Assembly (NCBI GenBank): GCA_963667365.1
Contig: OY763324.1
Coordinates: 1,210,071-1,274,070, forward strand
Direction: 5' to 3'
Length of the DNA stretch: 64,000 bases
DNA from: Candidatus Poribacteria bacterium
Lineage (GTDB): Bacteria > Poribacteria > WGA-4E > WGA-3G
Shown: positions 5,884 through 52,461 of the stretch, one piece after another
Numbering within the stretch: the stretch's first letter is position 1
How the letters are laid out: the number at the start of each line of letters is the position of its first letter
Made by a program: the position numbers and the translations under genes
The notes under the pieces: model-generated
Seen by the model: the letters and a program-made list of their open reading frames with translations, nothing else
Told to the model about the DNA's origin: nothing
Database searches by the model: none

Positions 5884-5980
5884 CCCTGTAGAAGCACTCT
5901 CCGAATCGCGACCTATCGTGCCAAATCAACGGTATGGAATACCATCTAAGCATTCCCCGGAGTTCCCTCCTACAATGAAT
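5884..5980. repeat. MITE/REP-like palindromic element (inverted arms CTGTAGAAGCACTCTCCGAATCGCGAC ... CCGGAGTTCCCTCCTACAATGA)
   Basis: Both arms match the arms of the element at 36905-36980 (in reverse orientation) and the solo motifs at 35467, 46323 and 52445. Confidence 0.6.
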
Positions 5981-6373
5981 TGTGCGGTTTCAGTTCTCTA
6001 CATAGTATCTGAAAACTAAATCAGCGGTACAAAATAGTATAATATGGCTTATCGAATCCACTTTCAATAATATGAGAATACCGGTACAGAGGACTTTCTG
6101 ATTAGTTCACAGAGTGTCGTTTTTCCATAATTTGCAATAGAATCTAAATTTATTCAAATTTAATTTGACATATTAAGTTACTGTAGAGTATAATTAGCCA
6201 TATTAGGACTAATATATTATTATTTCATAAATTAGTAATATAAGTCTTAACGCAACTTGGTTATATCTTATTTATTATATGTAAGATGAGTTTAATCAAA
6301 AAAGTAATAAATTTACTTTGTAGAAATAGTACCACAGTATATTGACTGACTGATGTGAGTTGAACTACAAAGA

Positions 6374-6948
6374 GTGGGTGATGATTACACAACACCTTTT
6401 GATATGTCCTATGATATGCAAGCAGCCTTTTCAAGAGGTGAGAAGGCATTTTTTAAAGTATTCACACCGGAAGAAGGTTTGGGACCGGTATTCAATAATA
6501 CTGGATGTGTCAGTTGTCATCCATCAAACGGACGCGGCACACCAGATTTAATTCTTATCCGGTTTAGTATTGGTGATAATCTCATGCTTGATCAGGGAGG
6601 ACCCCAGTTCCAAGACAAAGCCATCCCTGATGTTCCATACGAAATGCTTCCAATAGGTGTGGACAAATCACCACGACTTCCTCCTCCAGTCTTTGGGATG
6701 GGACTTATTGAAAATATACCAGTTGAGACGATTTTAGAAAACGAAGACGAAGTTGGCGAACTCGTTTAGTAGCGGAATTTCTTGGTGGTACTCCGTTTTT
6801 CCTTCACGATGGACGCGCAACAACACTTCGCGGTGCTATTCGGGCACACGGAGGTGAAGCACAAAAAACATAAGAGGAATTTTTTAATCTGTTTAATCTG
6901 TCTGAAACTGATCAACAAGCGGTTATCGCTTTTATCAGTTCACTTTGA
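6374..6948 (+). pseudogene. DUF1111-family di-heme cytochrome c peroxidase-like gene remnant (N-terminal fragment, internal deletion, frameshift, in-frame stop)
   Basis: N-terminal fragment 6374-6769 has GLGPVFNNTGCVSCHPSNGRG (first CxxCH) and RLPPPVFGMGLIENIP. A frame change follows at ~6775 giving EFLGGTPFFLHDGRATTLRGAIRAHGGEAQKT, then an in-frame TAA, then EEFFNLFNLSETDQQAVIAFISSL. About 250 aa of the middle are missing, including the second heme site. Confidence 0.7.
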
Positions 6949-6971
6949 CGATAAAGGTCTAATACTGTAAT

Positions 6972-7406
6972 GTGCGGTATCCCATGTGTTCATCCGCACA
7001 AAATGGTTGTTTGAATGCCATTGAAAGGAAAGTGAAAGTGACATCTTATTTTAATAAAACTTTAATTTTATGGTTATTGGTTTTCATTATATTTTTAATT
7101 CATGTGGTTCTACTCTTTGTAGGGTGTAATGTTCAAAACCCAAGAAAAATCACATCTGAAATAGGAGATACGACGACGGTGCTTGACTTTTGTAGGTCCG
7201 AGGACAGGGAAATCGTGATGAGATTGTCTTACATAATGGACACACCTCCACTAAATCCTACAAATCGTTTTGCCGATGACCCGGATGCAGCGAAGTTAAG
7301 AATGACATTGTCAGGTGAAATGCCACCTGATCATTTGGTACATAAGTTGTCAACCGCACCGTGGTCATTAGGTAATGTATTAATGACGATGTTGCAAAGG
7401 ACGTAA
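6972..7406 (+). CDS. hypothetical small protein with one hydrophobic segment (possible lipobox LFVGC)
   Basis: Only an ORF with no homology signal; possibly spurious. Confidence 0.25.
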   Translation: MRYPMCSSAQNGCLNAIERKVKVTSYFNKTLILWLLVFIIFLIHVVLLFVGCNVQNPRKITSEIGDTTTVLDFCRSEDREIVMRLSYIMDTPPLNPTNRFADDPDAAKLRMTLSGEMPPDHLVHKLSTAPWSLGNVLMTMLQRT

Positions 7407-7446
7407 ACATCTCGCTCTGGGAGAGGCGACAAAAGACAAACCAAGT

Positions 7447-7558
7447 GTATATGGAATGCTGTAGGCGTATTCCATATACTTGGTATGCAAATATTATCTT
7501 CTGAATAACAATTTCATTAGGTTGTTATTCCTCCTTGCGGGGGATTTAAATCCTCCGC
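7447..7558. other. cluster of three stable hairpins in a convergent intergenic region
   Basis: 7447-7479: 11-bp perfect stem GTATATGGAAT/ATTCCATATAC with loop GCTGTAGGCGT, which resembles the MITE core. 7503-7530: 9-bp stem GAATAACAA/TTGTTATTC. 7537-7558: 8-bp stem GCGGGGGA/TCCTCCGC. None has a clean U-tract. Confidence 0.45.
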
Positions 7559-7612
7559 ACTAACACTATCAATTAGAGTGTTAGATGTGTCCTTAACTAA
7601 AGGGACAACGGG

Positions 7613-10045
7613 TTAACGATCTTCACCGTAATCTGGTTCTGTTGCATGTTGGACAACCCAATTTTCAAAAACCGATTTAAACGACTTCGCTTTGTCACCA
7701 AAATGAATATACTGGATACTGTTGATAGGCACCGACACCTCTCCATAAATTTTTGAACGTCCCAACAACCTTTCACCTTTAACCTCAAGTGGTTCAAAAA
7801 TCAGGATCGGATTGTGGATCAATGCAAAGCGAATTTCAGACGTGGGAGTTGTTAACTGTTGGCTATCGGGTTTCTGCAACACATCTGCATTTTCCCCATT
7901 TCCTGTCTCTTCTGCTGGTTCGTCGTGTGCGTCAACACTAATATCAACTACCCGAGCCACGCGTTCAATAGGTAACGTAATTTTTTGTAGTCTTGATTCA
8001 AATTGAATTGTTTTTCCGTTGAAACTCAGTAATTTACCTCGTTTTACATCCCCGTTTTTTGCAATAAGAATGTGGTGGGGCGGATTATCTCGGTTGAATC
8101 GTGGGACGGTGAGTGCGCGTTCTAAATTTACATCTAATTTCTCTGGTTGGGTTTCAAGCGGATCAAACATAAGTTCAACAGCACGTTTAAGAGCAGCAGC
8201 ATCATTATCTGCTAAATCTCCCCCGATTACGACTTTAAGCATCTGCGTGGGGTCATTGATATCCACTTCAATTTCCAGATTACCATCTTTTGTTCTGTGC
8301 ATCTCACCTTCCAAAATTCGACCATCCTCTAATATAATACGGTGTTTGTTCCCTCCAGTGATAGTAATAGGATTTCGGTTTTCCTTTCGTGCGTGTGTTT
8401 TTCCGCGTGAGAATTCAATACCTTTTATATGTTCTGTGCTGATGTGTGTCTTACCTACAAAAGGTGATCGGAAGTTAATGCGGGATTCATCTATAGACAA
8501 GATTTGAGATGGAATAACTTCTCCGTTTTTTAGATGCATTAGATGCGGGAACGTCTTTATATCAAAGGGGTGTAATCTTGAAACATGTTTATTGTGGCGT
8601 TCGACGCGGGGAGATAGGTTATTTGCTATCTGAACTGGCTCGGAAGTACCTACAGGCTGCCAATTGATACTGGATTTATTTTCAGTGTCAATAATCAATT
8701 GACCACGAAGACTACTTGAAGGGAAAAACATTGTGTCATAAGATGCAATAGGTCCCTTTACTTTAGGGTCAGACCCAAGCCGTAGTAGAGACGCTCCATT
8801 GAGAGAACAAGTTATAGGTTTGACTGCATACTTTGTTTCGATTATAGCACTATCTGCGTTCAATTGTAGTACTTGTCCACTAATAACGGAACCATTAAGA
8901 TATGTCAATTCCATGTTTTGTTCTGTCTCTACCAACGTCCGTCCTGGTTGTACAACACGATCAATCTGCAATAGGTCAATATTCGATTTCGTGCCATCGG
9001 TATCAAGGACATAGGTGTTACCATTTTCAATATATAGTTTACCGTGAAAAGCTTCTCCGCTCATCATGTGGACTCGCGGTTTGGAAAAGTCGATTTGCTG
9101 ATGTCTAAATTCAGAGGGTTGCCGATAGACCCTCAACCTTTGCACAGTCATGTCTTGTCCTCGGTTATAAATATAAATACCGGGTACCTCAGTGGTTGGA
9201 CTTACTTCATCCAATTTCAACAGCAAATTACCGTTAACATCAAATACCTTTAACACTCCAGTTTCTTGGTCATAAGCGAGGCGTAACCGGAAGTTCCGGT
9301 GATGCGGTTGGATTGTCAATATTTTTTCATAAAGTGTGCCTTGGACAACAACAAGATCTTTTGCCCATGTTTCTACACGTAATGCTTCATAAAGGTTTTT
9401 GCCGAGTGAGAAAACAAAGCCTGGTGGACCTGTAGCAGATCCCAATTCAACGTCAATTTCAAAGCGCGTGGGCCATTCAAGGGGATAAAATATGCTTGTC
9501 TTAGACTTTTCTGTCCGCGGTTGTCCACCACGTTCGGCATACCAACCTGTAGTCTTATTTTTTGTTTGGTTTTCATTCTGTTCGGATAATTGCCATGCTG
9601 CCAGTTGTGAACCGTCAAAAATGAGATTGGAATGTGCTCGATTTTCGAGTGAGTAAATCATTTCCCTATTTACTCTAAAATCACCGTATTGTTCGCTGAA
9701 AAAGTGAATGGTGTTTTCATCTGAACCTGTAATGTCCGCTATCCAGATATCACCTGATACTGTACCGACGCGAAATGTACCATTGACTGGTGAGGTTTGT
9801 TTTGAGAAAACAATCGAATCCAATACGTTGATGTCAATATTTAGATCGTCTATAAAGTATGGAGACTTCCAGCGAATTTCCCCAGGTTTACCCTCTAACA
9901 GTTCACCAGCGAGAGAATCACCATTTTTCCAACGTAATTTTGTTTCCTCAGCATGTGTATTGATGGGAAGCCATATCCCCGCAAGGGTTATGAGAATCCC
10001 TGAGATGATGTGTAGGCATCTACGCATTGCATTTCTCCTTGACAT
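7613..10045 (-). CDS. secreted 810-aa beta-rich protein, function unknown
   Basis: N-terminal signal peptide (MRRCLHIISGILITLAGIWLPINTHAEE). It is the last gene of the long minus-strand array. Confidence 0.6.
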   Translation of the reverse strand: MSRRNAMRRCLHIISGILITLAGIWLPINTHAEETKLRWKNGDSLAGELLEGKPGEIRWKSPYFIDDLNIDINVLDSIVFSKQTSPVNGTFRVGTVSGDIWIADITGSDENTIHFFSEQYGDFRVNREMIYSLENRAHSNLIFDGSQLAAWQLSEQNENQTKNKTTGWYAERGGQPRTEKSKTSIFYPLEWPTRFEIDVELGSATGPPGFVFSLGKNLYEALRVETWAKDLVVVQGTLYEKILTIQPHHRNFRLRLAYDQETGVLKVFDVNGNLLLKLDEVSPTTEVPGIYIYNRGQDMTVQRLRVYRQPSEFRHQQIDFSKPRVHMMSGEAFHGKLYIENGNTYVLDTDGTKSNIDLLQIDRVVQPGRTLVETEQNMELTYLNGSVISGQVLQLNADSAIIETKYAVKPITCSLNGASLLRLGSDPKVKGPIASYDTMFFPSSSLRGQLIIDTENKSSINWQPVGTSEPVQIANNLSPRVERHNKHVSRLHPFDIKTFPHLMHLKNGEVIPSQILSIDESRINFRSPFVGKTHISTEHIKGIEFSRGKTHARKENRNPITITGGNKHRIILEDGRILEGEMHRTKDGNLEIEVDINDPTQMLKVVIGGDLADNDAAALKRAVELMFDPLETQPEKLDVNLERALTVPRFNRDNPPHHILIAKNGDVKRGKLLSFNGKTIQFESRLQKITLPIERVARVVDISVDAHDEPAEETGNGENADVLQKPDSQQLTTPTSEIRFALIHNPILIFEPLEVKGERLLGRSKIYGEVSVPINSIQYIHFGDKAKSFKSVFENWVVQHATEPDYGEDR

Positions 10046-10124
10046 ACATTAGTTATTCGCTCCACGGTGTTATAAAGTAGTTATTCAATAAGATATTACT
10101 TTCATTCCAGAGTAGCGATAGTAT

Positions 10125-11252
10125 TTATCTCTCGTAGATGGGTAGAAGGCGGTAGTTCAAAGCTAAGGTTAACACAGCCATTCCCGTTCCATAGGCTTTT
10201 CCGTAGGAACTGTTGAAACTTCCATCAGTTTGTTGCATTTTTTGTAGTCGTTCAATAGTACGTTGATTCCAAGATTGCCACGCCTCTAAATCGCTTTGAA
10301 ATAGAGCTTGTGCCATATAATATAGAGTATAAAACATATAACTACTACCTATATTATAATTCGCTCTGCGTTTGATGTATTCGGAAGTTGCTTTATATTC
10401 AGGTGTATCTTTCCGCTTTCCAATAGCGTAAACGAGTGCGCCAATCGCAGATCGGGTCAGGCTATCACCATGGCTGCCTGATGCCGTATAAGAGACACTT
10501 CCACCTCGCGTGGTACAGGTTTGAAAATAATTTAATGCCTTGTTAACGGCTTCATTTGGCACCTCAATACCGGCGTTTCGTGCACCGAGTATCCCCATTA
10601 ATACCGTTCCAGTGACGGTTGTATCGGCATCCCGGGCTTGTGGAGAGTATCTCCAACCGCCCCATGGGTTTTTTTCTTGTGCAGTCAGAGCACATCTCAC
10701 CGCAAGTTCTAAGGCTTCACTAAGGGTTCGTCTGCGGTTAATAGGGACATCACTATCCTTCCAAAGTAGGTCTTCATTTACCGCACCATACGCCTCAGAC
10801 AGTGCTAACGTGGCAAAACCGTGATGATACATTGATGCATGTCCACTTGTTCCCATGTATCCTGTTTTGGGGTCTTGGCTGACGATCATGCTGCGGACGG
10901 CTTTACGTATGTGTGTGGCATAAGGACCGTAATCTGGGTCTTCACCACTTGCCATGAATGCCATAACGCAAATACCTGTTGTTCCCGCACCATTCCGTGA
11001 ACCTTGCCAACTGCCATCTTTCATCTGGGTGTTTGCAAGGTATCGCAAACATCTGTCATTGATGCTTCTCACAGCAGGTGGGACACCTGTTCCATAGCGT
11101 AGGGTTGGATCTTGGGCGTATGCCGATTCGCTGACAAATATGCTCATGAAACTCAATATACCAATGATACCAATAATTCGTATATGGTTTTTCATTAGTA
11201 AACCTGTAACTTTTTTGTATTGTGTCATGTTTTTATTCTCCTCTAATTTCAA
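10125..11252 (-). CDS. secreted prenyltransferase/squalene-oxidase-repeat (alpha/alpha-toroid) protein
   Basis: QW-like repeats DGSWQG, WGGWRYS and TDGSFNSS, plus a signal peptide. The true start is probably the internal Met at ~11195, which removes the 20-nt overlap with the upstream gene. Confidence 0.6.
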   Translation of the reverse strand: MKLEENKNMTQYKKVTGLLMKNHIRIIGIIGILSFMSIFVSESAYAQDPTLRYGTGVPPAVRSINDRCLRYLANTQMKDGSWQGSRNGAGTTGICVMAFMASGEDPDYGPYATHIRKAVRSMIVSQDPKTGYMGTSGHASMYHHGFATLALSEAYGAVNEDLLWKDSDVPINRRRTLSEALELAVRCALTAQEKNPWGGWRYSPQARDADTTVTGTVLMGILGARNAGIEVPNEAVNKALNYFQTCTTRGGSVSYTASGSHGDSLTRSAIGALVYAIGKRKDTPEYKATSEYIKRRANYNIGSSYMFYTLYYMAQALFQSDLEAWQSWNQRTIERLQKMQQTDGSFNSSYGKAYGTGMAVLTLALNYRLLPIYER

Positions 11253-13023
11253 ATTGACTCTGTTGCCAAGAACTCCAAGTCTCAGGACCTGTTCTTAGGT
11301 AAAGTTCGAGAATGATAAAAAGTAGTCCGTCAACACTTATAAACGGAAGAGCCAACTGTTCTGTTGTTACCATTAACTGTTCACGTTGTGTATTATTCAT
11401 AAGTAGGTGCAGATCAAAGATTGCAACAATCACATCATGCGCTGTCTGTTGTAGAAAAGTCTCTGCTTCCTTCTGCTTTTTAATATATTGCTCGTAAGCA
11501 TCTACAGAAAGAACGTCTTTAATAGTTTGTTGATAAAGCGGATGATTTATAATACCAGAAATTCTGTCAAAAATCAGACTGTTGAGTGTTTGTTGATAAA
11601 TGGGAATATAAGTTATGACAGCTATGTCATATTTCCATTGTAAGTTGTTTGTGTTTTTATTATCCTGTAAGTCCTTCAGTATAGCTTTGAGTTCTTGAAC
11701 AGCCTCTTCTCGAGTTATTTTGTCAGTTAACGCCTTGAGTGAGAAGCTACCTATGTTTGCTATGAATGGTACCATTGAATCGGCATAGTCATTTTGAGTT
11801 TCGGTGAATTGTTGAACCACACCTTTTGCTGCCAAATCTAAACGTTGAGAGACGGGTTTGTTGCGTAATCCTAACTGTTCTGTATGTGCCGCAAGGACTG
11901 CTTCTGCAAGTTGCCACAGTTGAGATTCTTGGATTTCCTCTTTAGTATTGATCTGAAGTTGTTTCTGTTGTTTATCTGGTTTTGCGGCTGCTTCTCCCGG
12001 TGCTTCAAGCACTTCGACTCCTATTACATCTTTAAATGGCTTACTATCTTCGTGTATATTTAGCATTACACGCAATATTTTGGACTGTGTTTGGTTCAAT
12101 ATACTGTCTAAAGAAAGTTTCAATTCATTTATTATGAAGTCTACTATCTCTTGAAAAGGTTGCGTTATATTTTTTTGTATTTTCAGGTCTTCAATGGTAT
12201 TTAGTTTATTGAGTAGTAATTGTGTTAATTGTATTCTTTGTTCGGTTGTTAGACTAAGTGATTGATTAAGTAATGCAGTTATGAGATGTGCGTAGGCTTG
12301 TTGAATTCGCTGTCGTCGTGCTTTAGTATAATTTATATAATCCTGAAGTTGTTGTGCGTTCAGATGTTTGGCAAATGCACTTTTAGTATCGGGATGAGAC
12401 AACAATGCTTCAAGTATCCCTGTACCGGTACTAGTTGTAAGTCTTGTATCTAAGACGATAGACACCATACTTTTGTCATGTTTTAACGACGTTTCAATTG
12501 AATCATTGATTGACTGACGAAGTTCATTGACAGTTGTCCTGTCTAAGTGGTAAAGCATACCGATATTTTCGGTAATATGATGGACTAAAGGCTCAATTTT
12601 ATTCTTATGAATGCCCTTTGTGTTAACCATTTTCCGTTGGGCAATGTGGGTTCCTCCATTAACCACAACTACAGATTTTCCAGTGCGGGTACCGTATCCT
12701 TCTTTGCGGAAGTTGACAGTATAACGTCTGCCCGGGATGCCAGAGTATTTATAATTGCCGTTAGCATCAGTTTTTGTAGTGAATATCTTGCCATCTGAAC
12801 TAACAATCTTAACTTCAACACCTTCAATTGGAATCAGTTCAGTGTCAAGAATTTCACCTCGAATTGTTCCGCCTTTTACCGCGTTATCTTCTGCGAAAAG
12901 GATGCTTACGGATATAATACTAATACATACAAATGTTATAACCGCAAAACTATAACGGGTCATTTTCTGGGAATCCTTATAAAGATATGTACTTTTCTTT
13001 TTGTCTCTAAACCGGACTGTCAA
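11233..13023 (-). CDS. secreted protein with an N-terminal carboxypeptidase-regulatory-like (transthyretin-like) beta-sandwich domain and a long alpha-helical C-terminal region; paralog A
   Basis: Signal peptide followed by GGTIRGEILD...GVEVKIVSSDGKIFTTKTDANGNYKY. It is paralogous to 13020-14774 along its whole length. The likely start is the internal Met at ~12963. Confidence 0.6.
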   Translation of the reverse strand: MTVRFRDKKKSTYLYKDSQKMTRYSFAVITFVCISIISVSILFAEDNAVKGGTIRGEILDTELIPIEGVEVKIVSSDGKIFTTKTDANGNYKYSGIPGRRYTVNFRKEGYGTRTGKSVVVVNGGTHIAQRKMVNTKGIHKNKIEPLVHHITENIGMLYHLDRTTVNELRQSINDSIETSLKHDKSMVSIVLDTRLTTSTGTGILEALLSHPDTKSAFAKHLNAQQLQDYINYTKARRQRIQQAYAHLITALLNQSLSLTTEQRIQLTQLLLNKLNTIEDLKIQKNITQPFQEIVDFIINELKLSLDSILNQTQSKILRVMLNIHEDSKPFKDVIGVEVLEAPGEAAAKPDKQQKQLQINTKEEIQESQLWQLAEAVLAAHTEQLGLRNKPVSQRLDLAAKGVVQQFTETQNDYADSMVPFIANIGSFSLKALTDKITREEAVQELKAILKDLQDNKNTNNLQWKYDIAVITYIPIYQQTLNSLIFDRISGIINHPLYQQTIKDVLSVDAYEQYIKKQKEAETFLQQTAHDVIVAIFDLHLLMNNTQREQLMVTTEQLALPFISVDGLLFIILELYLRTGPETWSSWQQSQFEIRGE

Positions 13024-14774
13024 ATTTCATCAATATCTGAAAGTAAAGTATGAAGTTGAGTTTCCTGCCAACGAGTCAGCATTCCGCTTTCTATCTGTCC
13101 AGTAAGTTGATCAAACATATCTCTTTCATCATCTTGGATCAATAGAGGCGCGGACAACTGTGTTGCTATCTTTTCTAACTGCTTCCGTTGGATATCGTTT
13201 AAGAACATCAATATATCCAGGTCTGCTACCACTAAATCACGCAAAGCCTGTTGACGGAAGTTATCTCTTTCTGTTTGGATTGCTATATATTTTGCATACT
13301 CATCTTCAGAAAGAACATCCTTTAGAGTTAGTTGAAAGAGCGGATGATATGTAATATCATAAGTTGGATGATTTAGCGTGCTGACGATATCAATTTCTGA
13401 GTTAAATCCTCTGGGTCCGTTTAGGAGTGCTCTTCTAAGTGAGGCTAATCGGATAAAGTAAGTAAAAAATCGGAAACCGAATAGTCCCGTACCATGAATG
13501 GTTTCATTCGGTATGCTGTTAGATTTTTTCTCATTCCACAACTTTTCGCTCAGGTTTTGTAGTTCCTCATAAGCTTGATATGAAGTTATTTCTTTTGATC
13601 TGGCAGCAGCAATAAGTTTAGCTTCGGCTTCACGATATGTTGTCATTTTTTCTTCGGCTTCAAGGTATTTTTGAGCCACACCTTTGATAGCCAAAGTTAG
13701 TAGTTGTGAGGCATGGTCATTAAGTGTGCCTAACTGTTTGATATGAGAGGCGAATATTGTTTCAACCAACTGTTTCGTTTGTTCATGAGATCTCAACATA
13801 TCCGCTTTTATCTTTAGCTCATCAAGTCTTGCTGTAGCGGTTTTTGTGTCACTCCAATCGAATGCAATTTGATTTTGGGTGCTCCGAATCTCGTGCTTAA
13901 TCGCAGCAACAGCATTTTTTCCTTTTATCCAATTCAATATTTTCTTCTGTGTATCGGTTAATACAGACACCCATGATTCATCATCTTTCGCGCTAAGACG
14001 CAACGGCATTATCTCTTGACGTTGATCCGCTGTGAAGCTAAGTGTTTTATCAAGTACTGCTGTCGAATAGTAGATTGAGGCTTGATTTCTGCGGTGCCGA
14101 CGCACCTTGCTGAAATCGTTAATATCCTTTAGTTGTGTATCGGTTAGGTGTTTAGCAAATGCACCTTTTATATCGGGACGTAACAACAATGCATCAAACA
14201 CATCTATGTTTTCGTCACCATAGTGAATTGCGAATATAGATAGATCTTTTCTGTTTTCTAATGCTGCTTCAATAGATTCACGGATTGACTGACGCAGAGC
14301 ATTAACAACACTCTTATCCAAATTATGTCGACTTGATATGTTATCGGTAACTTGGTAGAGCATAGGTAGGATTCTGCCATGAACCATCTGTTTGGCATGA
14401 TTAAACCAATCAACCATTTTGAGTTCAACAACATGGTCTCCATCATCTTCCACTACAATAGATTGACTACCACTACCCTTGCTTTCAAAACCTTCTTGAC
14501 TGTATTTGAGGGTATATTTTCCCACAGGGAGATGGTCAAATTTATAATTACCATTTACATCAGTTTTTATAGTATGTTCTTTGCCATCAGCATTAACGAT
14601 AGTAACTATTAAGCCCTCAATAGGTTCTGTAGCCTTGCCATATTTAAGTGCCTTACCTCGGATTGTTCCACCATCTGTAATATTGTCTTCTGCGAACGTT
14701 ATACTTGTGTACACACAGATACATGCAACCGACATAAGCATAAAACTCAAACGTGCTATTTTTTTTAGTCGCAT
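13020..14774 (-). CDS. secreted CarbopepD_reg-like domain protein; paralog B
   Basis: GGTIRGKALKYG...GLIVTIVNADGKEHTIKTDVNGNYKF, plus shared downstream helical motifs (HPDTKSAFAKHL vs RPDIKGAFAKHL). The ATGA at 13020-13023 overlaps the stop of this gene and the annotated start of paralog A. Confidence 0.6.
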   Translation of the reverse strand: MRLKKIARLSFMLMSVACICVYTSITFAEDNITDGGTIRGKALKYGKATEPIEGLIVTIVNADGKEHTIKTDVNGNYKFDHLPVGKYTLKYSQEGFESKGSGSQSIVVEDDGDHVVELKMVDWFNHAKQMVHGRILPMLYQVTDNISSRHNLDKSVVNALRQSIRESIEAALENRKDLSIFAIHYGDENIDVFDALLLRPDIKGAFAKHLTDTQLKDINDFSKVRRHRRNQASIYYSTAVLDKTLSFTADQRQEIMPLRLSAKDDESWVSVLTDTQKKILNWIKGKNAVAAIKHEIRSTQNQIAFDWSDTKTATARLDELKIKADMLRSHEQTKQLVETIFASHIKQLGTLNDHASQLLTLAIKGVAQKYLEAEEKMTTYREAEAKLIAAARSKEITSYQAYEELQNLSEKLWNEKKSNSIPNETIHGTGLFGFRFFTYFIRLASLRRALLNGPRGFNSEIDIVSTLNHPTYDITYHPLFQLTLKDVLSEDEYAKYIAIQTERDNFRQQALRDLVVADLDILMFLNDIQRKQLEKIATQLSAPLLIQDDERDMFDQLTGQIESGMLTRWQETQLHTLLSDIDEI

Positions 14775-14843
14775 TGTATACCCTCCAACACCTTGCAGAA
14801 ATACGATTCGCTTAGAAATCTTATATACCAGAACGGGAACCGT

Positions 14844-15785: not shown

Positions 15786-15819
15786 CGGTTTCCCTCTGTT
15801 ACGGCACGTTGTAGATCTA

Positions 15820-17019: not shown

Positions 17020-17034
17020 TCCTCCAGTAATCTG

Positions 17035-35466: not shown

Positions 35467-35495
35467 CCTCTGTAGGAGCGATCTCCAAATAGCAC
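35467..35495. repeat. solo MITE/REP-like arm (CCTCTGTAGGAGCGATCTCCAAATAGCAC)
   Basis: Matches the family core TCTGTAGGAGCGATCTCC. Confidence 0.55.
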
Positions 35496-35567
35496 TTTAC
35501 GACTAAAACATCTATAGAATAGACACTTGAATAGTTCGGAGGTTCAAATAATGTAGTGTTGTTCCTG

Positions 35568-36806: not shown

Positions 36807-36904
36807 AAATAAAATTATATCACGATTAGCCATAATTCGCAATATACAAACGCATATAACACGGATATTTTGTGTCCTAACAATTGGATTTGTGGAATAA
36901 TCCG

Positions 36905-36980
36905 CTTCTTTGTAGGAGGGAACTCCGATTCCCGACCATACATATCCATAGTCGCGATTCGGAGATCGCTCCTACAGAAG
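36905..36980. repeat. MITE/REP-like palindromic element (two ~30-bp inverted arms around a 15-bp spacer)
   Basis: CTTCTTTGTAGGAGGGAACTCCGATTCCCGACC ... GTCGCGATTCGGAGATCGCTCCTACAGAAG; the two arms are mutually reverse-complementary. Confidence 0.6.
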
Positions 36981-37023
36981 ATGTGTAAACATATTTTTAT
37001 ATTTCACTATAAATAAAAAATGT

Positions 37024-37052
37024 TTGACTCGCATAAAAACATGTGATATACT
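37024..37052 (+). promoter_or_regulatory. sigma70-type promoter for the tRNA(CAT)-tilS-hpt unit
   Basis: TTGACT, a 17-nt spacer, then TATACT, ending 21 nt before the tRNA 5' end. Confidence 0.6.
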
Positions 37053-39116: not shown

Positions 39117-39184
39117 ATTTAAATAAATTCAGTAAACATTTTATGTCAACATACGTTTTGTATATGAATATTTGTAGTTTTTTC

Positions 39185-39214: not shown

Positions 39215-39250
39215 TCATAGAGAATGATTTTGATAGTGAAGGAGATTTTG

Positions 39251-43411: not shown

Positions 43412-43420
43412 GAATAAGAC

Positions 43421-44683: not shown

Positions 44684-44729
44684 ATAATAGGTGTCAATTT
44701 AGCGAACCAAATAGGGAATAACAAAACCC

Positions 44730-45794: not shown

Positions 45795-45846
45795 CCAAAT
45801 TTATTGTTATTTTTACGGGTGATAAATACGGAGTGAAGAAAAGGGA

Positions 45847-45920
<74 letters not shown>

Positions 45921-45932
45921 ATAAGAAAAATA

Positions 45933-46019
45933 TGGTCGAGGAGGGACTTGAACCCTCACGCCTGTGTTAGGGGCGATGGATTTTAAGTCCATTGTGTCTA
46001 CCGATTCCACCACTCGACC
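45933..46019 (-). tRNA. tRNA-Leu (TAA)
   Basis: Type II long variable arm, anticodon loop CUUAAAA, and a G13:A22-type D-arm. Confidence 0.8.
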
Positions 46020-46035
46020 GATTGCATAGAATAAT

Positions 46036-46064
46036 AGTATACACAATTTCCAAGAAGTTGTCAA
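46036..46064 (-). promoter_or_regulatory. sigma70-type promoter for tRNA-Leu/tRNA-fMet
   Basis: On the minus strand: TTGACA, a 17-nt spacer, then TATACT, ending 15 nt before the tRNA-Leu 5' end. Confidence 0.55.
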
Positions 46065-46322
46065 CTTTTTTTCATACTATTTAAAATACGGAGTGTTTTC
46101 TATTAAGGAGAAGATATAGCGCGGGTTTAACGTCTCCGCGCAGGACGGTTAGGGGATTTATGAACACGGATATTTATACTCGCCTCCGTTGGGGCAAGGT
46201 GTATATGTCGCGTCATATCAGTTGATCAAGATTCAGGATTTCTGTTTACGAAATACATCCTTCTTGATACAAATGATAAATAATACCATTTCTAATTGAT
46301 TGTGTCCCATTTTATCTCACTC

Positions 46323-46344
46323 CTCTTCTGTAGGAGCGATCTTC
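46323..46344. repeat. solo MITE/REP-like arm (CTCTTCTGTAGGAGCGATCTTC)
   Basis: Family core. Confidence 0.5.
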
Positions 46345-46707
46345 ATTTACAACGGTTAATGTCATAGTGATTTATAGAAATGGTATAATCATATTAAGCC
46401 GTTATTGTATAATATTGGAATGATTAATATTTATCTAATGCAATATATGATATATTGTATTTATTTACAATAGAATAGTCAACAAAATATTGACTTTTAG
46501 GAGTTAATGTAAGTCAAAATCTATATATTTGAATTTTTTGATGCAGATATTAACCTTGTAAACACAATATTGCATTTAACAGACTAAGTCCAACTACCGA
46601 TTTCAAACTTTCTATCCACTCATATTTCTCTTGACTTTTTTCCAGAATAGAATATCATGCAGTAAAAAGGAGCGTTGGGTATTACTTGCGAACCCACATA
46701 ATAACCT

Positions 46708-47478
46708 ATGAAAAATGTCACACTTGCATCAGGACACGAGATGCCTATGTTAGGCTTGGGTACTTGGCGACTCAAAGGCAAAGAATGTGAAAAAGTTATC
46801 AAAATAGCGATTGAATTGGGATATACTCATATTGATACAGCGTGGATGTATGACAACCAAAAAGCAGTTGGAAAAGCACTTCGAGAAATTTCCGTAGATC
46901 GTGAAGAACTCTTTATTACAACCAAAATTTGGCATACCCATCTTAAACATGATGAAGTACTGTCCCAATTTGATGTGTGTATAAGTGATTTACAGATGGA
47001 CTATGTCGACTTGTTACTAATTCATTGGCCAAGTGACACCGTGCCGTTTGAAGAAACTTTCACAGCCTTTCAGGAAATATACGACGCAGGTAAAGTGAAA
47101 AGTATCGGCATCAGCAATTTCAGCATTGCTCAGGTACAACGAGCATGTGAGATATCTGATCTCCCGATATGCACGAATCAGGTTGAATATCATGTTCGGA
47201 GCAAAAAAGAAGAATTGCGTGAGTATTGTGAGACACGCAACATTCCTATCACAGCACACAGACCTCTTGCTGTGGGAAATCTTGCGGAAGACACAGAATT
47301 GACAGAAATCGGAAACAAACACGGGAAAACAGCAGCACAAGTAGCATTGCGATGGCTCATACAGAAAAGTATTGTCACAATTCCTAAATCTGGTTCGGAG
47401 CCACATCTGCGGGAGAATTTAGACATCTTTGATTGGCAGTTGACAGATACGGAAATGCAGACACTTGAAAATACATAG
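46708..47478 (+). CDS. aldo/keto reductase
   Basis: GLGTW and IDTAWMYDNQ. Confidence 0.8.
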   Translation: MKNVTLASGHEMPMLGLGTWRLKGKECEKVIKIAIELGYTHIDTAWMYDNQKAVGKALREISVDREELFITTKIWHTHLKHDEVLSQFDVCISDLQMDYVDLLLIHWPSDTVPFEETFTAFQEIYDAGKVKSIGISNFSIAQVQRACEISDLPICTNQVEYHVRSKKEELREYCETRNIPITAHRPLAVGNLAEDTELTEIGNKHGKTAAQVALRWLIQKSIVTIPKSGSEPHLRENLDIFDWQLTDTEMQTLENT

Positions 47479-47505
47479 GCATCAAGAAAGGAACAACATA
47501 AACGT

Positions 47506-48789
47506 ATGAAATTCGGGTTGTTTTATGAACACCAAATCCCGCGTCCATGGGAAGAAGGAGCAGAACATAAACTTTTCCAAGATGCATTAGATCAGGTAGA
47601 ATTGGCTGACAAACTTGGGTTTGACTATATATGGGAGGTAGAACACCATTTCCTTGAAGAGTATTCACATTCTTCTGCGCCAGAGGTATTCCTCGCAGCA
47701 TGCAGTCAACGGACAAAACAGATTCGGCTTGGACACGGAATTGTCCTGATGCCTCCCGCGTATAACCACCCCGCACGTGTAGCCGAACGCATCTCTACAC
47801 TTGATTTGGTTTCAAACGGACGTGTAGAATGGGGTACAGGTGAATCAGCATCGCACATGGAACTCGGTGGATTCAACGTTGACCCAAAGTGTAAACGAGA
47901 AATGTGGGAGGAATGTACGCGCGAAACTGCGAAGATGATGATGCAATCACCTTATGCAGGTTATGATGGAAAACACTTCTCAATGCCAGTTCGTAATGTT
48001 GTTCCAAAACCGTTGCAAACACCACACCCACCACCATGGGTCGCTTGTTCCAGCCGAGATAGTTTACGATTCGCTGCCAGATACGGATTAGGCGCGCTTA
48101 CCTTCGCCTTTGTTGATGCAAATGAAGCTAAATTTTGGGTAGAGGAATACTATGAAATCTTTGAAAACGAATGTACCCCGCTGACACAGAGGGTGAACCC
48201 AAATATTGCAATGGTATCAGGCTTTTCCTGCCATGAAAACGAGGAGATTGCACTTGCCCGCGGTTTAGATGGATTCCGATTCTTCCGATTTGCCCTCGCA
48301 CACTACTATTACAACGGTTCACAAATTCCCGGTGAAACAGATATTTGGAACCTGTATAAACAAGCAAAACATGACCCAACCGAAGCACGCGCGGGAATCG
48401 GCACGCCAGATCAGGTCAGGGAACATTTAGAAATAATGGAAAACGCAGGCGTGGATCAAGTTGTTTTCATTCAACAAGCGGGTGCGAATCAGCATGAGGA
48501 TATATGCGACTCGCTACAACTATTTGCTGATCAGGTGCTACCGGACTTCAAAGCACGCGACGCAACACACACAGAACAAAAAAATGAGCGGTTGGCAACG
48601 GCAATCACAGCAGCCGATGCACGTAAACCTACTTTGACATCTCTAAGTAAGATCCCAATAGTTGATTCTTATCCTGTACTCAAGAAAAAACTTGAGGAAC
48701 AAGCAGCGGAAGTGAGTGAACCTGAGATGAGCGATGATAGTAAAAACTTTCTACTTTCAATAGAGGGTGGTCCTCGACAAGAGAAGTAA
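47506..48789 (+). CDS. LLM-class (luciferase-like) flavin-dependent oxidoreductase
   Basis: N-terminal TIM-barrel motifs matching bacterial luciferase-like monooxygenases. Confidence 0.75.
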   Translation: MKFGLFYEHQIPRPWEEGAEHKLFQDALDQVELADKLGFDYIWEVEHHFLEEYSHSSAPEVFLAACSQRTKQIRLGHGIVLMPPAYNHPARVAERISTLDLVSNGRVEWGTGESASHMELGGFNVDPKCKREMWEECTRETAKMMMQSPYAGYDGKHFSMPVRNVVPKPLQTPHPPPWVACSSRDSLRFAARYGLGALTFAFVDANEAKFWVEEYYEIFENECTPLTQRVNPNIAMVSGFSCHENEEIALARGLDGFRFFRFALAHYYYNGSQIPGETDIWNLYKQAKHDPTEARAGIGTPDQVREHLEIMENAGVDQVVFIQQAGANQHEDICDSLQLFADQVLPDFKARDATHTEQKNERLATAITAADARKPTLTSLSKIPIVDSYPVLKKKLEEQAAEVSEPEMSDDSKNFLLSIEGGPRQEK

Positions 48790-48802
48790 TGGACAGATTA
48801 TC

Positions 48803-50239
48803 ATGAAAAATGTGTTGGTGATTGACGACGACGAGAAAATCTGTTGGGCATTTCAGCAATTCCTTGAGGGTGAGGGGTACTCTCCCAGCATTGCACACAA
48901 CGCTGAAGAAGGTCTACGCCAAATTGCATCCGACAAGCCGGATGTCGTTCTCCTTGACGTCGGACTCCCTGGAATGAGTGGCTTGGAAGCGTTGGCTGAG
49001 ATTAAAAATCAACACCCGTCAGTAATTGTAGTTATCATCACTGCCTACGACGATGTTGAGACGACAATAGAGGCAATGCGCCTACACGCATTCGATTTTG
49101 TACCAAAACCAATTGATTTAGAAGTTGTTAAAAGTGTGCTTGAGCGAGCATTCCGGACACAGTCTGTCCGAAGTACATTGCCTATAGAGACAGAAACCCA
49201 TTCCTCAACAGAACAACGTGGACATCGACTCGTTGGGAAAAGCGAGCAGATGCGCGAAATATATAAACTCATCGGGGTATTGGCAAGTAATACGACCACA
49301 GTGCTCATCGAAGGTGAGACAGGAACAGGAAAAGACCTTGTTGCACGTGCAATTCATGCAGGGAGTGTACGCAAAGATATGCCTTTCATTCCTGTTGACT
49401 GTGGGGCACTGCCAGATGATCTTTTAGAGAGTGAGCTATTCGGATACGAAGCAGGAGCATTCACCGGGGCAAAAAAAGAGGGCAAACCGGGTCGTTTCGA
49501 ATTGGCAGATGGTGGCACGCTTTTTCTTGATGAAGTCGCGAATATGAGTCCCGCATTACAAGTAAAGTTGCTCCGCACATTACAAACCCAGGAGATTGGA
49601 AGGTTAGGCGGAACGCGCACTCTTAAGGTGGATGTGCGTGTCATTGCAGCTACCAATCAGGAACTCGGGCAAATGGTTAAACTGGGACAGTTTCGCACAG
49701 ATCTTTACTACCGATTCAAACGTATCGCACTCCATCTACCACCTTTACGGGAAAGGAAAGAGGATATACCGTTACTTATCACACATTTCCTACACCTCGT
49801 CCAAGATGAACTCGGTAAACCGATCCGCGGAATTTCTCAAGAAGGTATGAAATTACTTCAAAATTATGTTTGGCCAGGAAATGTTCGCGAGTTAGAAAAT
49901 AGCATCAGAAGTGCTGCAGCACTCTCACGTTCTGATGTAATCCTACCGGACGACCTACCAGAAGAAATCCATTCAGGTCTAAGTGCTACCATCCCCAATA
50001 CTTCACACGTGGAAACTTCACTAAAATCTGTCTTAAAAGATATTACAAAAGTAGGTATTGCCGAAGGCAGTCAACAACTATACGATGATGCTATCGGAAT
50101 GTTTGATAAGACTATCATTGAACTCGCATTAGATGAATGCTCGGGCAATCAGAGCAAGACTGCCGAATTACTCGGTATTAGCCGAACCACACTCATAAAA
50201 AAGATGAAGCAACACAAAATCGGAGAAAATGGAGCATAG
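48803..50239 (+). CDS. sigma54-dependent response regulator (NtrC family)
   Basis: REC domain (VLLDVGLPGMSG), an AAA+ domain with GETGTGKD and GAFTGA, and a C-terminal Fis-type HTH. Confidence 0.85.
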   Translation: MKNVLVIDDDEKICWAFQQFLEGEGYSPSIAHNAEEGLRQIASDKPDVVLLDVGLPGMSGLEALAEIKNQHPSVIVVIITAYDDVETTIEAMRLHAFDFVPKPIDLEVVKSVLERAFRTQSVRSTLPIETETHSSTEQRGHRLVGKSEQMREIYKLIGVLASNTTTVLIEGETGTGKDLVARAIHAGSVRKDMPFIPVDCGALPDDLLESELFGYEAGAFTGAKKEGKPGRFELADGGTLFLDEVANMSPALQVKLLRTLQTQEIGRLGGTRTLKVDVRVIAATNQELGQMVKLGQFRTDLYYRFKRIALHLPPLRERKEDIPLLITHFLHLVQDELGKPIRGISQEGMKLLQNYVWPGNVRELENSIRSAAALSRSDVILPDDLPEEIHSGLSATIPNTSHVETSLKSVLKDITKVGIAEGSQQLYDDAIGMFDKTIIELALDECSGNQSKTAELLGISRTTLIKKMKQHKIGENGA

Positions 50240-50245
50240 GATATT

Positions 50246-50962
50246 ATGGATACGTGGATTCGGATTGCGCACCGAGGTGCATCGAAAATTGCTCCAGAAA
50301 ACACACTCGCTGCATTCAAGAAAGCAATTGAAATCGGTGTGGATGCCATTGAACTTGATTTACACGGAACCGAAGACGGTGAGATTGTTGTCATACACGA
50401 CCCTTCCTTAGATAGAACCACAAACCTAAGTGGTCCAATAAACCAAACAACCTTAGAGACTATCAAACAGGCGGATGCAGGTGCATGGTTTAATCCGCAG
50501 TTTACTGGTGAAAAGGTCCCAACACTTGCTGAAGTATTAGCATGTATCGGAGACAAAACAATTGCGGTTTTGGAAATAAAAGATACTTTAATCTCCGAAA
50601 CAGTTGTTGAGAATATTCGCGATATGAATATGCTTGAACAGGTTGTTATTATATCCTTCCATACATCCGTATTACAAACCGTTCGTGCTATAGAACCGCG
50701 GATCCCGACAGGATGGCTTATCGGTAGTAGCAACGGATACACGCATACTGTCCAACTGTGTCAACAACTCGGTTCACTCGGTAGCGCTCTACTTAATGTC
50801 AATCACCACCTGATAACTGCTGAATTCGCTTACGAAGTCCGTAGACGTGGTATCGCCTTATGGAGTTGGACAGTAGATGATATTGTACGGATGCGACAGA
50901 TGTTGGCTTTTGGTGTACAGGGAATCACATCTAATCAACCAGAGTGTTTTTCCGATGTATGA
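50246..50962 (+). CDS. glycerophosphodiester phosphodiesterase
   Basis: HRG...E(L)D(L)H...HD motifs. Confidence 0.8.
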   Translation: MDTWIRIAHRGASKIAPENTLAAFKKAIEIGVDAIELDLHGTEDGEIVVIHDPSLDRTTNLSGPINQTTLETIKQADAGAWFNPQFTGEKVPTLAEVLACIGDKTIAVLEIKDTLISETVVENIRDMNMLEQVVIISFHTSVLQTVRAIEPRIPTGWLIGSSNGYTHTVQLCQQLGSLGSALLNVNHHLITAEFAYEVRRRGIALWSWTVDDIVRMRQMLAFGVQGITSNQPECFSDV

Positions 50963-52293
50963 CTTTTCCGCCAGAATTCAATCGCAATATACGCAAAGAT
51001 CGGATAAGAAAGCAAAGTGGTTGACCAAGCAATCCCTTCTAATCCCCAATACCGCATAAAAACCCAATTGAGAACCGGATTTAGTATAAGTCTGATTAGT
51101 GTCGCAGAGAGAATTGTCATGTGATTTTGACTCGCCAGATGCGCACGGATCAGCAATCTGCTAATTAGACGTGGGAGCATACCGATAAGATAAATGCCTA
51201 ACAGGGAAGCAATATGCTGTTGTCCCACAATAGACAACTTTCCATGTCCAAATAATAACGCTACAATATCTGACCGAAACAGATAAAAACCGATTAGAAA
51301 CGGTGCCATCAGGACGATTACTGCTAACACGCCTCTCCAAACACTCTGTTGTAATTCCTCTGCGTTCTCTAACGATGAGATCCTTGACCAATGGGAAAGC
51401 AGGACAGGAAGTGTTACACCCGAAAGTGTTTCCGGAATAGCACACAAACGGAGTGAATAATCAAGTTTTGAGACCGAACTTGGACCGAGTGTACTCGACA
51501 TTCCTCTGTCAACAACAGGGTTCATGCCATCCGAAATAGCTGCCCCAGCCATTAACATACATTGTCGCAAAAATTGTTTGGTATATGGGAATTCTGCTGT
51601 ACCTTTATGGATTCGTGTCACTCTAAATAGACTGTGTAAAGGTATATTTAGGACAACACTACAACGTTGAAATAGGATAATTGTTTGAAAAAGTTCACCG
51701 ATGACAAGTGCAATCGGGATACTAAACCAACTCACGTAAGGTTTGGATAGAAAAATAGCAGCGATGACTATAATAGCACGGAGTCCATGCACAATAACAG
51801 GTATGTGAAACACTTGGTAGGTGTCTAAAATCGCTTTTAAAATCCATCGAATTGATGAAATGATCGTTAAACAAAGAAATCCGAAGATAATACCGGTTGT
51901 AGTAGATACCGTGAGTCCAACGTTTGGAAAAAAGAGTTGTGAGATTCCCCATGAAATAGCAACTAAAATGCAACAAAGTCCCGGCATAAGTGTAATATAA
52001 CGGGAAAAGATGGATTGGACACATTCCTGTGCTTCCGTTTCACCTTTCTCCCTCGCTTCTGCTAACAGTGGGACAAGGACAGAGTATGCAGTCGCCGCAC
52101 TTAGCAACTCAATCAGAAATGCTGCGATACCCCAATAATAGTAGATGAAATCCATCTCCGCTGTATCACCGAACCAATTAGCGAGTACAATGTAAATGAG
52201 AAATGTACCTGCGCGTCCTATGAGACTGAGTGGTGTAATAAGCAGGATATTCTTGAGGAGGGACCTTTGGGTTTGGGGAACATTATTCGGCAT
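50935..52293 (-). CDS. MOP-superfamily flippase (MurJ/MviN-like)
   Basis: About 12 TM helices with a MurJ-like N-terminus. The 452-aa length is shorter than canonical MurJ. Confidence 0.55.
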   Translation of the reverse strand: MPNNVPQTQRSLLKNILLITPLSLIGRAGTFLIYIVLANWFGDTAEMDFIYYYWGIAAFLIELLSAATAYSVLVPLLAEAREKGETEAQECVQSIFSRYITLMPGLCCILVAISWGISQLFFPNVGLTVSTTTGIIFGFLCLTIISSIRWILKAILDTYQVFHIPVIVHGLRAIIVIAAIFLSKPYVSWFSIPIALVIGELFQTIILFQRCSVVLNIPLHSLFRVTRIHKGTAEFPYTKQFLRQCMLMAGAAISDGMNPVVDRGMSSTLGPSSVSKLDYSLRLCAIPETLSGVTLPVLLSHWSRISSLENAEELQQSVWRGVLAVIVLMAPFLIGFYLFRSDIVALLFGHGKLSIVGQQHIASLLGIYLIGMLPRLISRLLIRAHLASQNHMTILSATLIRLILNPVLNWVFMRYWGLEGIAWSTTLLSYPIFAYIAIEFWRKSHTSEKHSG

Positions 52294-52379
52294 GAAATGG
52301 TTGAGGTGGTGTTTGTTCAGCCACTATATTTGCACTGTGCGTATAGATTCATTATACATCTGCTCAAGAAAAAAGTCAA

Positions 52380-52400
52380 GGTTCTGAATCCAACAATTCA
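52380..52400. repeat. 21-bp direct repeat copy 1 (GGTTCTGAATCCAACAATTCA)
   Basis: Identical to 52653-52673. Confidence 0.7.
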
Positions 52401-52444
52401 GTCCAATTTAATTTTCTGGTAGTTGCTATTTACGCTCAAAATGC

Positions 52445-52461
52445 CTCTTCTGTAGGAGCGA
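52445..52461. repeat. solo MITE/REP-like arm (CTCTTCTGTAGGAGCGA)
   Basis: Family core. Confidence 0.5.

Follow-up and report, generated by a model that had tools for sequence, protein, structure and literature searches.

GTAG-tagged repetitive extragenic palindromes (REPs) are marked by a GTAG that stays unpaired at one end; their stems, of 5-13 bp, vary in a complementary manner, their loops measure 2-20 nt, and the GTAG-1/2 families have in addition 'GW' as two extra bases and a tail of 3 bp (Di Nocera et al., 2013; PMC3733652). Head-to-head dimers predominate among them, clusters occur, several classes can be present in one genome, and association with REP-associated tyrosine transposases (RAYTs) is frequent (PMC3733652). 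The REPs that flank rayt genes in Pseudomonas include TGTAGGAGCGGATTCATCCGCGAT and TGTAGGAGCGGCCTTGcGTCGCGAA (Nunvar et al., 2010; PMC2817692, Table 1). Here we report that a palindromic motif recurring in a 64,000-nt stretch of Candidatus Poribacteria contig OY763324.1 (assembly GCA_963667365.1, positions 1,210,071 to 1,274,070; hereafter the window, whose own numbering is used throughout) is the 5' head of a 27-nt hairpin module of the GTAG-tagged REP type, and that its copies are modular composites, not one simple element.

Exactly four copies of the 13-mer TCTGTAGGAGCGA are found in the window, at 35469 (+), 36966 (-), 46327 (+) and 52449 (+), where 0 are expected, and 0 of 100 dinucleotide-preserving shuffles gave any match, in agreement with the first-pass annotation, which had noted a 13-mer recurring four times beyond chance. 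The full module, or arm, consists of C-T-GTAG, two unpaired bases (GA), a 5-bp stem, a 6-nt loop (CTCCGA), the closing stem strand and a 3-nt tail (GAC). Sampled DNA contained 475 arms in 1.78 Mb, and the window, as an unbiased 64-kb sample, 5 sites. The tag GTAG preceded the arm body in 397 of the 475 arms (84%), with GTCC (36) and GCGG (20, produced by insertion of the H-module described below) as variants; G7 and A8, the extra bases after the tag, were nearly invariant; and the tail was GAC in 403 arms (85%) and GAT in 11%.

The two main arm types, T1 (CTGTAGGAGCGATCTCCGAATCGCGAC, stem GCGAT/ATCGC) and T2 (CTGTAGGAGGGAACTCCGATTCCCGAC, stem GGGAA/TTCCC), differ only at positions 10, 13, 20 and 23, that is, in a compensatory manner on both sides of two stem base pairs. 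Minor stem variants are also paired (GCGAC/GTCGC, GCGAG/CTCGC, GTGAT/ATCAC and GGGGA/TCCCC) and, since arms were collected by their similarity to the stem-forming T1 and T2, it is these variants that constitute independent evidence for the stem. Over 110 distinct arms, 95% of the cells of the stem 9-13/20-24 were paired, and covariation reached 0.44, as against 0.126 in shuffles (0/500 reached 0.44) and at most 0.07 with slid partners, the covarying pair types being CG/GC/UA and AU/UA/CG/GC. An alternative stem, GGAG/CTCC (6-9/14-17), was rejected, being invariant and devoid of covariation. The intra-arm hairpin is maintained by compensatory change.

Because the arms display every sequence-level feature of the GTAG-1/2 families (tag, GA bases, compensated stem and 3-nt tail), we grouped them with the GTAG-tagged REPs. 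The likeness extends to high copy number, extragenic location, a majority of head-to-head dimers, clusters or arrays, and coexisting classes, and T1 (TGTAGGAGCGATCTCCGAATCGCGAC) also contains the head TGTAGGAGCG and the tail CGCGA of the Pseudomonas RAYT-flanking REPs. The Poribacteria repeats differ in having a stem of 5 bp, at the lower limit of the range, and a conserved 6-mer as loop, in residing in an AT-rich genome (42% GC) of a phylum outside the published surveys, in sharing one 27-mer among dozens of species and not within one species or genus, and in that the defining RAYT was not found among the ~1.75 Mb sampled.

Arms are usually paired. In the first 118 loci we counted 80 T1/T2 dimers joined head-to-head (tags outside, most often with a 13-14-nt spacer), 12 tail-to-tail dimers, ~33 tandem arms, four T1/T1 inverted pairs and no T2/T2 pair. 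T1 followed by 13-14 nt and a reverse-complemented T2 is a doublet akin to the REP doublets that form hairpins (REPINs) and to the bacterial interspersed mosaic elements (BIMEs): as in the REPIN-RAYT system (Bertels and Rainey; PMC3116915, bioRxiv 10.1101/2021.07.10.451892), two inverted REPs and a short spacer make up a long imperfect hairpin and, as the Y and Z types of REP are paired in the BIMEs of E. coli, so are T1 and T2 in Poribacteria. Unlike in these systems, no single-copy, repeat-flanked RAYT was found (~1.75 Mb), the dimers are nested in palindromic shells, and the differences between arms are compensatory within each arm, which leaves four fixed mismatches in the long hairpin. 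Folded as single-stranded DNA, the intact dimer of the window (copy B, Table 1) reached -19.5 kcal/mol (z -6.2), the four T1/T2 differences appearing as fixed 1x1 mismatches, and a canonical 135-nt element -24.6 kcal/mol (z -6.0). Tandem arrays (loci L018, L089, L040 and L096) consist of 27-nt arms and 11-13-nt spacers that are mutually identical; a CRISPR array was rejected on the grounds that these spacers are not unique and only 11-13 nt long.

A conserved 12-codon open reading frame (ORF) (MNSCEKQQNYYV / MNKCQEQLNYYL) starts 3 nt from the T1 head, in the left flank of the T1/T2 dimer, at L023, L076, L077, L103 and L013, with two places in one genome; it may be a leader peptide or belong to another shell.

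The distribution of the module was assessed by scanning one genome per species (185,579 species) with the 21-mer CTGTAGGAGCGATCTCCRAAT. At least 118 loci in at least 40 assemblies matched; among the matches listed, 116 were titled Candidatus or uncultured Poribacteria and two 'uncultured bacterium'. The 5.5-Mb chromosome OZ244563.1 alone held at least 14 separate 8-kb blocks with the 21-mer. The 21-mer occurred in just 93 stretches, contributed by a few projects, among 241 million metagenome records and in none of 2.9 million viral contigs, on which basis a phage origin was rejected. The spread over these Poribacteria assemblies, with many loci along single chromosomes, refutes the notion that the motif is absent elsewhere in the genome. 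The window itself (42% GC; large signal recognition particle (SRP) RNA, tRNA clusters, argG, tilS, murJ, dnaX and recR) encodes a TilS with 99% identity to a protein from a 4.5-Mb contig of ERZ24894576 and 59-76% identity to the other 119 TilS proteins listed, of which the 15 with a source name are all from Poribacteria. Our literature search retrieved no work linking Poribacteria with REP, REPIN, RAYT or MITEs (miniature inverted-repeat transposable elements). The repeat family is real in Poribacteria, of a familiar type and apparently undescribed in this phylum, and we are highly confident that it is a Poribacteria-wide, dispersed GTAG-REP/MITE family.

Element groups were intergenic in 157 of 173 cases (~90%), though ORFs, as called by a simple heuristic, cover 81% of the DNA. 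Occupancy also varies between species. Two related species (L122 and L123) lack copy B in their argG/tRNA-Met/tilS spacer, in which a short remnant possibly persists, and a 28-nt spacer between AKR and luciferase-like genes (47478-47506) is empty in the window and in the same-species contig L120 and carries T1 modules in L123 and L022, both from other species. These two spacers refute the idea of a conserved site at orthologous positions. The arms are non-coding, non-autonomous repeats confined to intergenic DNA, and are gained and lost at orthologous sites between species. It is extremely improbable that the motif is instead a cis-regulatory site held at orthologous positions, a chance recurrence or a CRISPR-like array: some copies do lie near promoters and tandem arm arrays do exist, but no shuffle yielded a match, orthologous occupancy differs, array spacers are identical 11-mers and nothing matched Rfam.

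Arms with 0-1 mismatch to one 27-mer are present in species whose TilS is ~73% identical and whose intergenic DNA is not alignable, an indication of purifying selection or of conserved masters that continue to be copied. Selection could act on a host function, the 27-mer being bound by a regulatory or nucleoid protein, or forming an RNA hairpin that affects mRNA stability, termination or translation, with mobility responsible only for its original spread. Identity of the 27-mer across species with ~65-75% TilS identity is consistent with this, as are a stem maintained by compensatory changes, some enrichment of elements between divergent genes (24% versus 13% background), the window copies that adjoin tRNA promoters and occupy a 5' leader, and the fact that E. 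coli REPs bind gyrase and integration host factor and stabilise mRNA (PMC3733652). We nevertheless consider a host function improbable as the main explanation, given that copies come and go at orthologous sites, that decay or truncation has affected window copies A, C and D, that neither a gene-orientation bias nor an excess of G-U over A-C is seen, and that one arm by itself forms a weak hairpin (-3.9 kcal/mol). The shell surrounding the dimer contains no sigma-70-like promoter and no terminator-like T-run; a promoter or terminator reading was rejected for lack of such sites, the tRNA-Met promoter lying outside copy B. Any effect on neighbouring genes, through hairpins in 5' untranslated regions or sites adjacent to tRNA promoters, is hypothetical.

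Most dimers sit inside larger palindromes, and several such shells could be distinguished. Shell-1, the commonest, is a palindrome of 132-140 nt with ends TTATAGT...ACTATAA, AT-rich and unconserved flanks and the dimer usually at its centre. Shell-2 is bounded by terminal inverted repeats (TIRs) GGGTGTGTAAAGTTTTTGGCA... (also given as GGGTGTGTAAAG...) and ...TTTACACACCC, of which window copy A keeps only the left; its TIR was counted 64 times over 1.78 Mb of Poribacteria sequence, and five of 11 complete copies are flanked by perfect 9-bp duplications, two of those five with T1/T2 inside. Family 3, with TIRs TCAGAGCCATTCAATTG... and ...CTGAATGGCTCTGA, encloses tandem T1 arms (38-nt period), H-modules or both, and three copies in one genome have duplications of 7-8 bp (TCCAATAT, TATGTACA and TCTGGTG in L018, L076 and L089); window copy E retains both TIRs and an 8-bp duplication, TCCAACAA. 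Family 4 is a 126-nt MITE (TIR CAGGGYTATTTAGTT) with one central T1 arm, which at L089 (OZ250160.1; 1-700, 670-1731 and 1830-1960) forms head-to-tail arrays with 4 nt between units, and which at the same locus has cut short the 3' end of an IS605-type tnpB (OrfB_IS605 plus Cas12f-like TNB). Family 3 and shell-2 have transposed, with target duplications, and part of the spread of the arms is hitch-hiking inside MITEs that make 8-bp (family 3) or 9-bp (shell-2) duplications. Duplications of 8 and 9 bp imply the trans action of DDE-type transposases; none of the loci sampled showed a transposase gene between such TIRs, though no search aimed at one was made. Both halves of the first-pass label 'MITE/REP-like' are thus justified, the arms having the anatomy of GTAG-REPs and the shells of copies A and E belonging to TIR families with 9- and 8-bp duplications.

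The same shells also hold unrelated GTAG cores, and it follows that core and shell assort independently. In shell-1 and shell-2 these are GTAG-GTGCGGTT..AACCGCAC, GTAG-CGCAAAC..GTTTGCG and GTAG-GGGCGGGTCTC.., the tag having been counted for the GTGCGGTT and CGCAAAC classes, and the GGGCGGGTCTC-type core having been observed behind TGTAG in copies of shell-2. A related hairpin, GGCGAGGTT..AACCTCGCC, is likewise found in shells, GTAG not being its common flank. Loci with other hairpin classes are L028 (3524), L096 (166), L101 (885), L112 (1986), L118 (4849), L168, L187 and L200; a regular-expression search of the window for the GTGCGGTT, GGCGAGGTT and CGCAAAC classes found none of these three.

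A further level of nesting is provided by the H-module, a hairpin (CGCTGAATGCC-n-GCATTCAGCG or GGGGAATGCC-n-GGCATTC) followed by GTTGATTT. Singly or in arrays, it occupies 12 of ~90 T2 arms, exactly between ...CCCTCC and (T)ACAG, and so splits the GTAG tag; it also forms the array of copy E and lies in the spacer of copy A, and was found at L019, L027, L041, L043, L044, L063, L070, L085, L112, L116 and L118 besides the window. It looks like a site-specific nested insertion.

Several of these arrangements have counterparts elsewhere. In Anabaena variabilis, GTAG-15 dimers lie inside long palindromes, TATAGGAnTnnnATTTGATT...AATCAAAT...TCCTATA, with ends TATAGGA..TCCTATA (PMC3733652); the head-to-head dimer is central in an AT-rich palindrome beginning TATAG, like that of shell-1 (TTATAGTrrAyT...ACTATAA), whereas the shell and core sequences and the phylum are different, and Poribacteria have several shells, two of which make target duplications. 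The Correia elements of Neisseria (end TATAGTGGATTAACAAAAATCAGGACAA) share their first 12 nt (TATAGTGGATTA) with many shell-1 ends, and both kinds of element are ~100-155 nt long, palindromic and intergenic, with TA-rich ends compatible with a TA duplication and without a known transposase; the interior is unrelated, however, Correia elements having no GTAG hairpin dimer, and the agreement at the terminus, being short, may be chance. Correia elements are further characterised by a TA duplication, an IHF site and promoters. The BOX elements of Streptococcus pneumoniae have the modular structure boxA-(boxB)n-boxC. Family 3, including copy E, is built similarly, with two partly complementary end modules around a variable number of tandem internal units, but its sequences and phylum are unrelated to those of BOX, and it has clear 8-bp target duplications.

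Two explanations for the spread of the arms then have to be weighed. We consider it fairly probable, for the explanation as a whole, that a GTAG-REP module spread in Poribacteria as dimers, by hitch-hiking in MITEs and through a RAYT-type step. In that step, a Y1/HUH transposase of RAYT type, acting in trans from another place in the genome, would recognise GTAG hairpin dimers in the form of single-stranded DNA hairpins, and this enzyme would keep the 27-mer identical across species and place dimers centrally in different shells. That such an enzyme moves the dimers we infer tentatively, as a possibility somewhat short of an even chance. The other explanation is that the arms have no transposase of their own and are conserved inner modules of DDE-type MITEs (shell-1, shell-2, family 3 and family 4), spread by hitch-hiking, tandem amplification and recombination. 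Arm-bearing MITEs flanked by 8- and 9-bp target duplications agree with it, as do tandem arm arrays of 38-40-nt and 126-nt period inside MITEs or as MITEs, the lack of a RAYT in the ~1.75 Mb searched, and the report of CGTC-type REPs without a dedicated transposase (PMC3733652). We find it rather unlikely, for the same dimer occurs in at least four unrelated shells and unrelated GTAG cores in the same shells, the centre is most conserved here when the termini of a MITE normally are, in head, extra bases, stem and tail the arms specifically match the GTAG-1 REPs associated with RAYTs, and solo arms are found without any shell.

A number of observations weigh against the explanation that includes a RAYT-type step. 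T1 arms are internal cargo of duplication-making MITEs, so that no dedicated enzyme is needed, and no RAYT or IS200-like ORF was found in the window or in ~1.75 Mb of T1-proximal DNA (1.06 + 0.70 Mb) by tblastn with E. coli RayT and an HUH...Y..NP pattern, a search whose positive control was recovered and which is a weak negative, with <1% of the genomes sampled and about one match expected. Shell-1, as seen in copy B, shows no target duplication beyond a possible TA, its ends being drawn without an empty site. In the stem, G-T and A-C mismatches are equally frequent (15 versus 13); these counts give no sign of strand-specific selection, on RNA or on one DNA strand, and selection at the RNA level was rejected, G-T not exceeding A-C. 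Solo arms show no orientation bias relative to genes, and the genes bracketed by elements are ordinary metabolic ones (methionyl-tRNA synthetase, OTCase, GGT, UbiA and dehydrogenases). No insertion polymorphism was detected over 38 kb between two strains of the window's species, and the predicted empty site of copy E was not found in metagenome contigs.

The absence of a cognate RAYT/IS200-like transposase from the window agrees with what the first reading of the sequence had stated. Clustering of 1,456 ORFs from the loci revealed no over-represented transposase, and Pfam returned ordinary enzymes and one TnpB pseudogene for 20 element-bracketed ORFs. A Transposase_31 gene (Rpn/YhgA-like PD-(D/E)XK) lies at 17555-18634 of L124, and an ORF at 4646-5515 of L051 and two similar ones resemble Transposase_31 by eye, with no Pfam match at 1e-4; together with the tnpB pseudogene, these were the only transposase-like ORFs seen near repeats, with no apparent link to them.

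A bolder version of the RAYT-type explanation, in which the T1/T2 dimer is an independently mobile, RAYT-driven 'parasite of MITEs' that inserts at shell centres and has kept its 27 nt unchanged across the sponge-symbiont clade, with a Pseudomonas-like head and tail (TGTAGGAGCG...CGCGA), appears unlikely to us. If true, it would mean either that a RAYT-REP recognition code has been conserved very deeply or that a REP-RAYT system has passed horizontally between Gammaproteobacteria and Poribacteria. The repeat family opens no new kind of mechanism. It extends the range of GTAG-tagged REPs to an uncultivated, sponge-restricted phylum that the published surveys do not cover and that is unusually rich in hairpin classes, shells, nested insertions and tandem arrays. 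The repeats account for many unannotated intergenic palindromes and probably for some contig breaks in Poribacteria metagenome-assembled genomes, and the 21-mer is a phylum-specific sequence tag with a possible use in strain typing. The system also offers a natural test of whether REP dimers move themselves or are borne by MITEs, and of how far the RAYT-REP recognition code is conserved.

The five window copies are an intact dimer (B), a decayed dimer (A), a solo arm (C), a truncated relic (D) and a MITE with target duplication (E) (Table 1). Every one lies between genes, as had been claimed, with no ORF of note overlapping. When the entire window was compared by sensitive blastn-short with Poribacteria loci, matches were confined to the segments listed in the first-pass annotation, all of which were recovered except the 7458 hairpin, with four or more matches each for 5884-5919, 5950-5975, 35467-35486, 36907-37014, 46323-46342 and 52478-52603.

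Table 1. Coordinates of the repeat copies and their component modules in the window.
Feature	Position	Strand	Remarks
Copy A, left TIR and shell of shell-2 MITE (GGGTGTGTAAAGTTT...)	5846..5883	+	TIR itself 5846-5860
Copy A, T1-type arm CTGTAGAAGCACTCTCCGAATCGCGAC	5886..5912	+	differs from the consensus by 3 mismatches, with damage to tag and stem
Copy A, one H-module (GGGGAATGC..GGTATTCCATACCGTTGATTT), reversed	5921..5957	-	takes the place of the inner T2 arm
Copy A, outer T2-type arm (CGGAGTTCCCTCCTACAA on + strand)	5958..5975	-	
Copy A, right end	to ~6022		right terminus (...TTTACACACCC) lost, right shell decayed
Copy C, solo T1 arm CTGTAGGAGCGATCTCCAAATAGCACT	35470..35496	+	head and first stem half intact, 3' half decayed
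Copy B, T2 arm TTGTAGGAGGGAACTCCGATTCCCGAC	36910..36936	+	exact T2 body
Copy B, spacer of head-to-head dimer	36937..36950	.	14 nt, the modal length of the family
Copy B, T1 arm (GTCGCGATTCGGAGATCGCTCCTACAG on + strand)	36951..36977	-	minus strand is the exact 27-nt consensus CTGTAGGAGCGATCTCCGAATCGCGAC
Copy B, shell-1 outer arm aagatgtgtaaacatatttttatatttcACTATAA	36978..37012	+	kept on T1 side; left shell (~36858-36909) decayed
Copy D, truncated relic CTCTTCTGTAGGAGCGATCT	46323..46342	+	T1 head and first stem half alone
Copy E, left target-site duplication TCCAACAA	52389..52396	.	
Copy E, family-3 MITE, 265 nt	52397..52661	+	left TIR TTCAGTCCAATTTAATTTTCTGGTAGTT, right TIR GAAAACTTGAAAATTGAATGGTTCTGAA
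Copy E, shortened arm CTGTAGGAGCGACCCGAC	52450..52467	+	T1 head fused to T2 tail, loop region missing
Copy E, H-module array (hairpin GGGGAATGCC-n4-GGCATTC plus ATACCGTTGATTT)	52479..52604	+	three well-preserved units plus a degenerate fourth
Copy E, right target-site duplication TCCAACAA	52662..52669	.	followed directly by -35 box (TTGACA), tRNA-Ser cluster promoter

Copy B had been described as two inverted arms of ~30 bp around a 15-bp spacer; the inverted arms hold, at 27 nt each, and the spacer measures 14 nt. Just beyond its shell begins the tRNA-Met promoter (37024-37052). Copy A does have the same arm types as B in the reversed orientation with a longer spacer (45 nt), as proposed, and is decayed, the DNA fold of 5884-5980 being no better than that of shuffles (z -0.6). 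Copy C is situated 17 nt upstream of the ATG (35452) of a minus-strand beta-propeller gene, in the spacer after argG, and the gene calls of L120 also put it between genes. The duplication of copy E is part of a perfect 21-nt direct repeat (52380-52400 / 52653-52673), and its interior comprises a T1/T2-hybrid arm and the H-module array, which folds with z -3.7. The GGAATGCC hairpins of this array (52479-52604), initially counted with the same family, are genuine repeats but belong to a second one, the H-module.

A second strain of the window's species, represented by two collinear stretches 99.0% and 99.5% identical to it, has copies B, C, D and E, and since the copies are shared at this identity they appear old. 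Exact-protein look-ups with TilS, MurJ and the gene adjoining A, which bear on recent mobility in this species, gave no match. Over 17.3 kb the window and L218 differ by only two indels, both inside copy E: a 16-nt tandem duplication in the left TIR region (52410-52425) and a 1-nt change in a G-run (52566). Copy E is a local hotspot of length change. Relative to window positions 36951-36977 in copy B, L120 (~9786-9812) has two adjacent substitutions (GTCGCGAT -> GGAGCGAT) by which the T1 stem goes from 5 to a perfect 8 bp, in what looks like a hairpin-templated (intrastrand) correction.

Copy B lies exactly at a switch in gene strand (~36.8-37.1 kb), nearly all genes being on the minus strand up to argG (36842) and most on the plus strand from tRNA-Met (37073), and cumulative GC skew is lowest at 36-38 kb. 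Strand switch and skew form the pattern of a replication origin or another switch point.

The hairpin at 7458, at first counted as a member of the repeat family, had no match in any related locus: the structure at 7440-7480 (loop GCTGTAGGCGT) has only one 6-mer in common with the family, is not a member of it and resembles an ordinary hairpin between convergent genes. Three strong hairpins (7440-7480 and 7525-7600; tatatggaat/attccatata, TGCGGGGGATT/ATCCTCCGCA and CTAACACT/GAGTGTTAG) stand between the two convergent genes, whose ends are at 7406 (+) and 7613 (-); these hairpins have no relation to the repeats and are probably terminators.

An Rfam scan of the whole window reported tRNAs and the large SRP RNA only, with nothing at the repeats. 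Two adjacent minus-strand paralogues (596 and 584 aa) at 11233-14774 share stretches of 42-85 nt that are 72-75% identical at an offset of ~1790 nt. The large bacterial SRP RNA is full length (54102-54367; Rfam RF01854, 175 bits) and adjoins a cluster of six tRNAs and dnaX-ybaB-recR.

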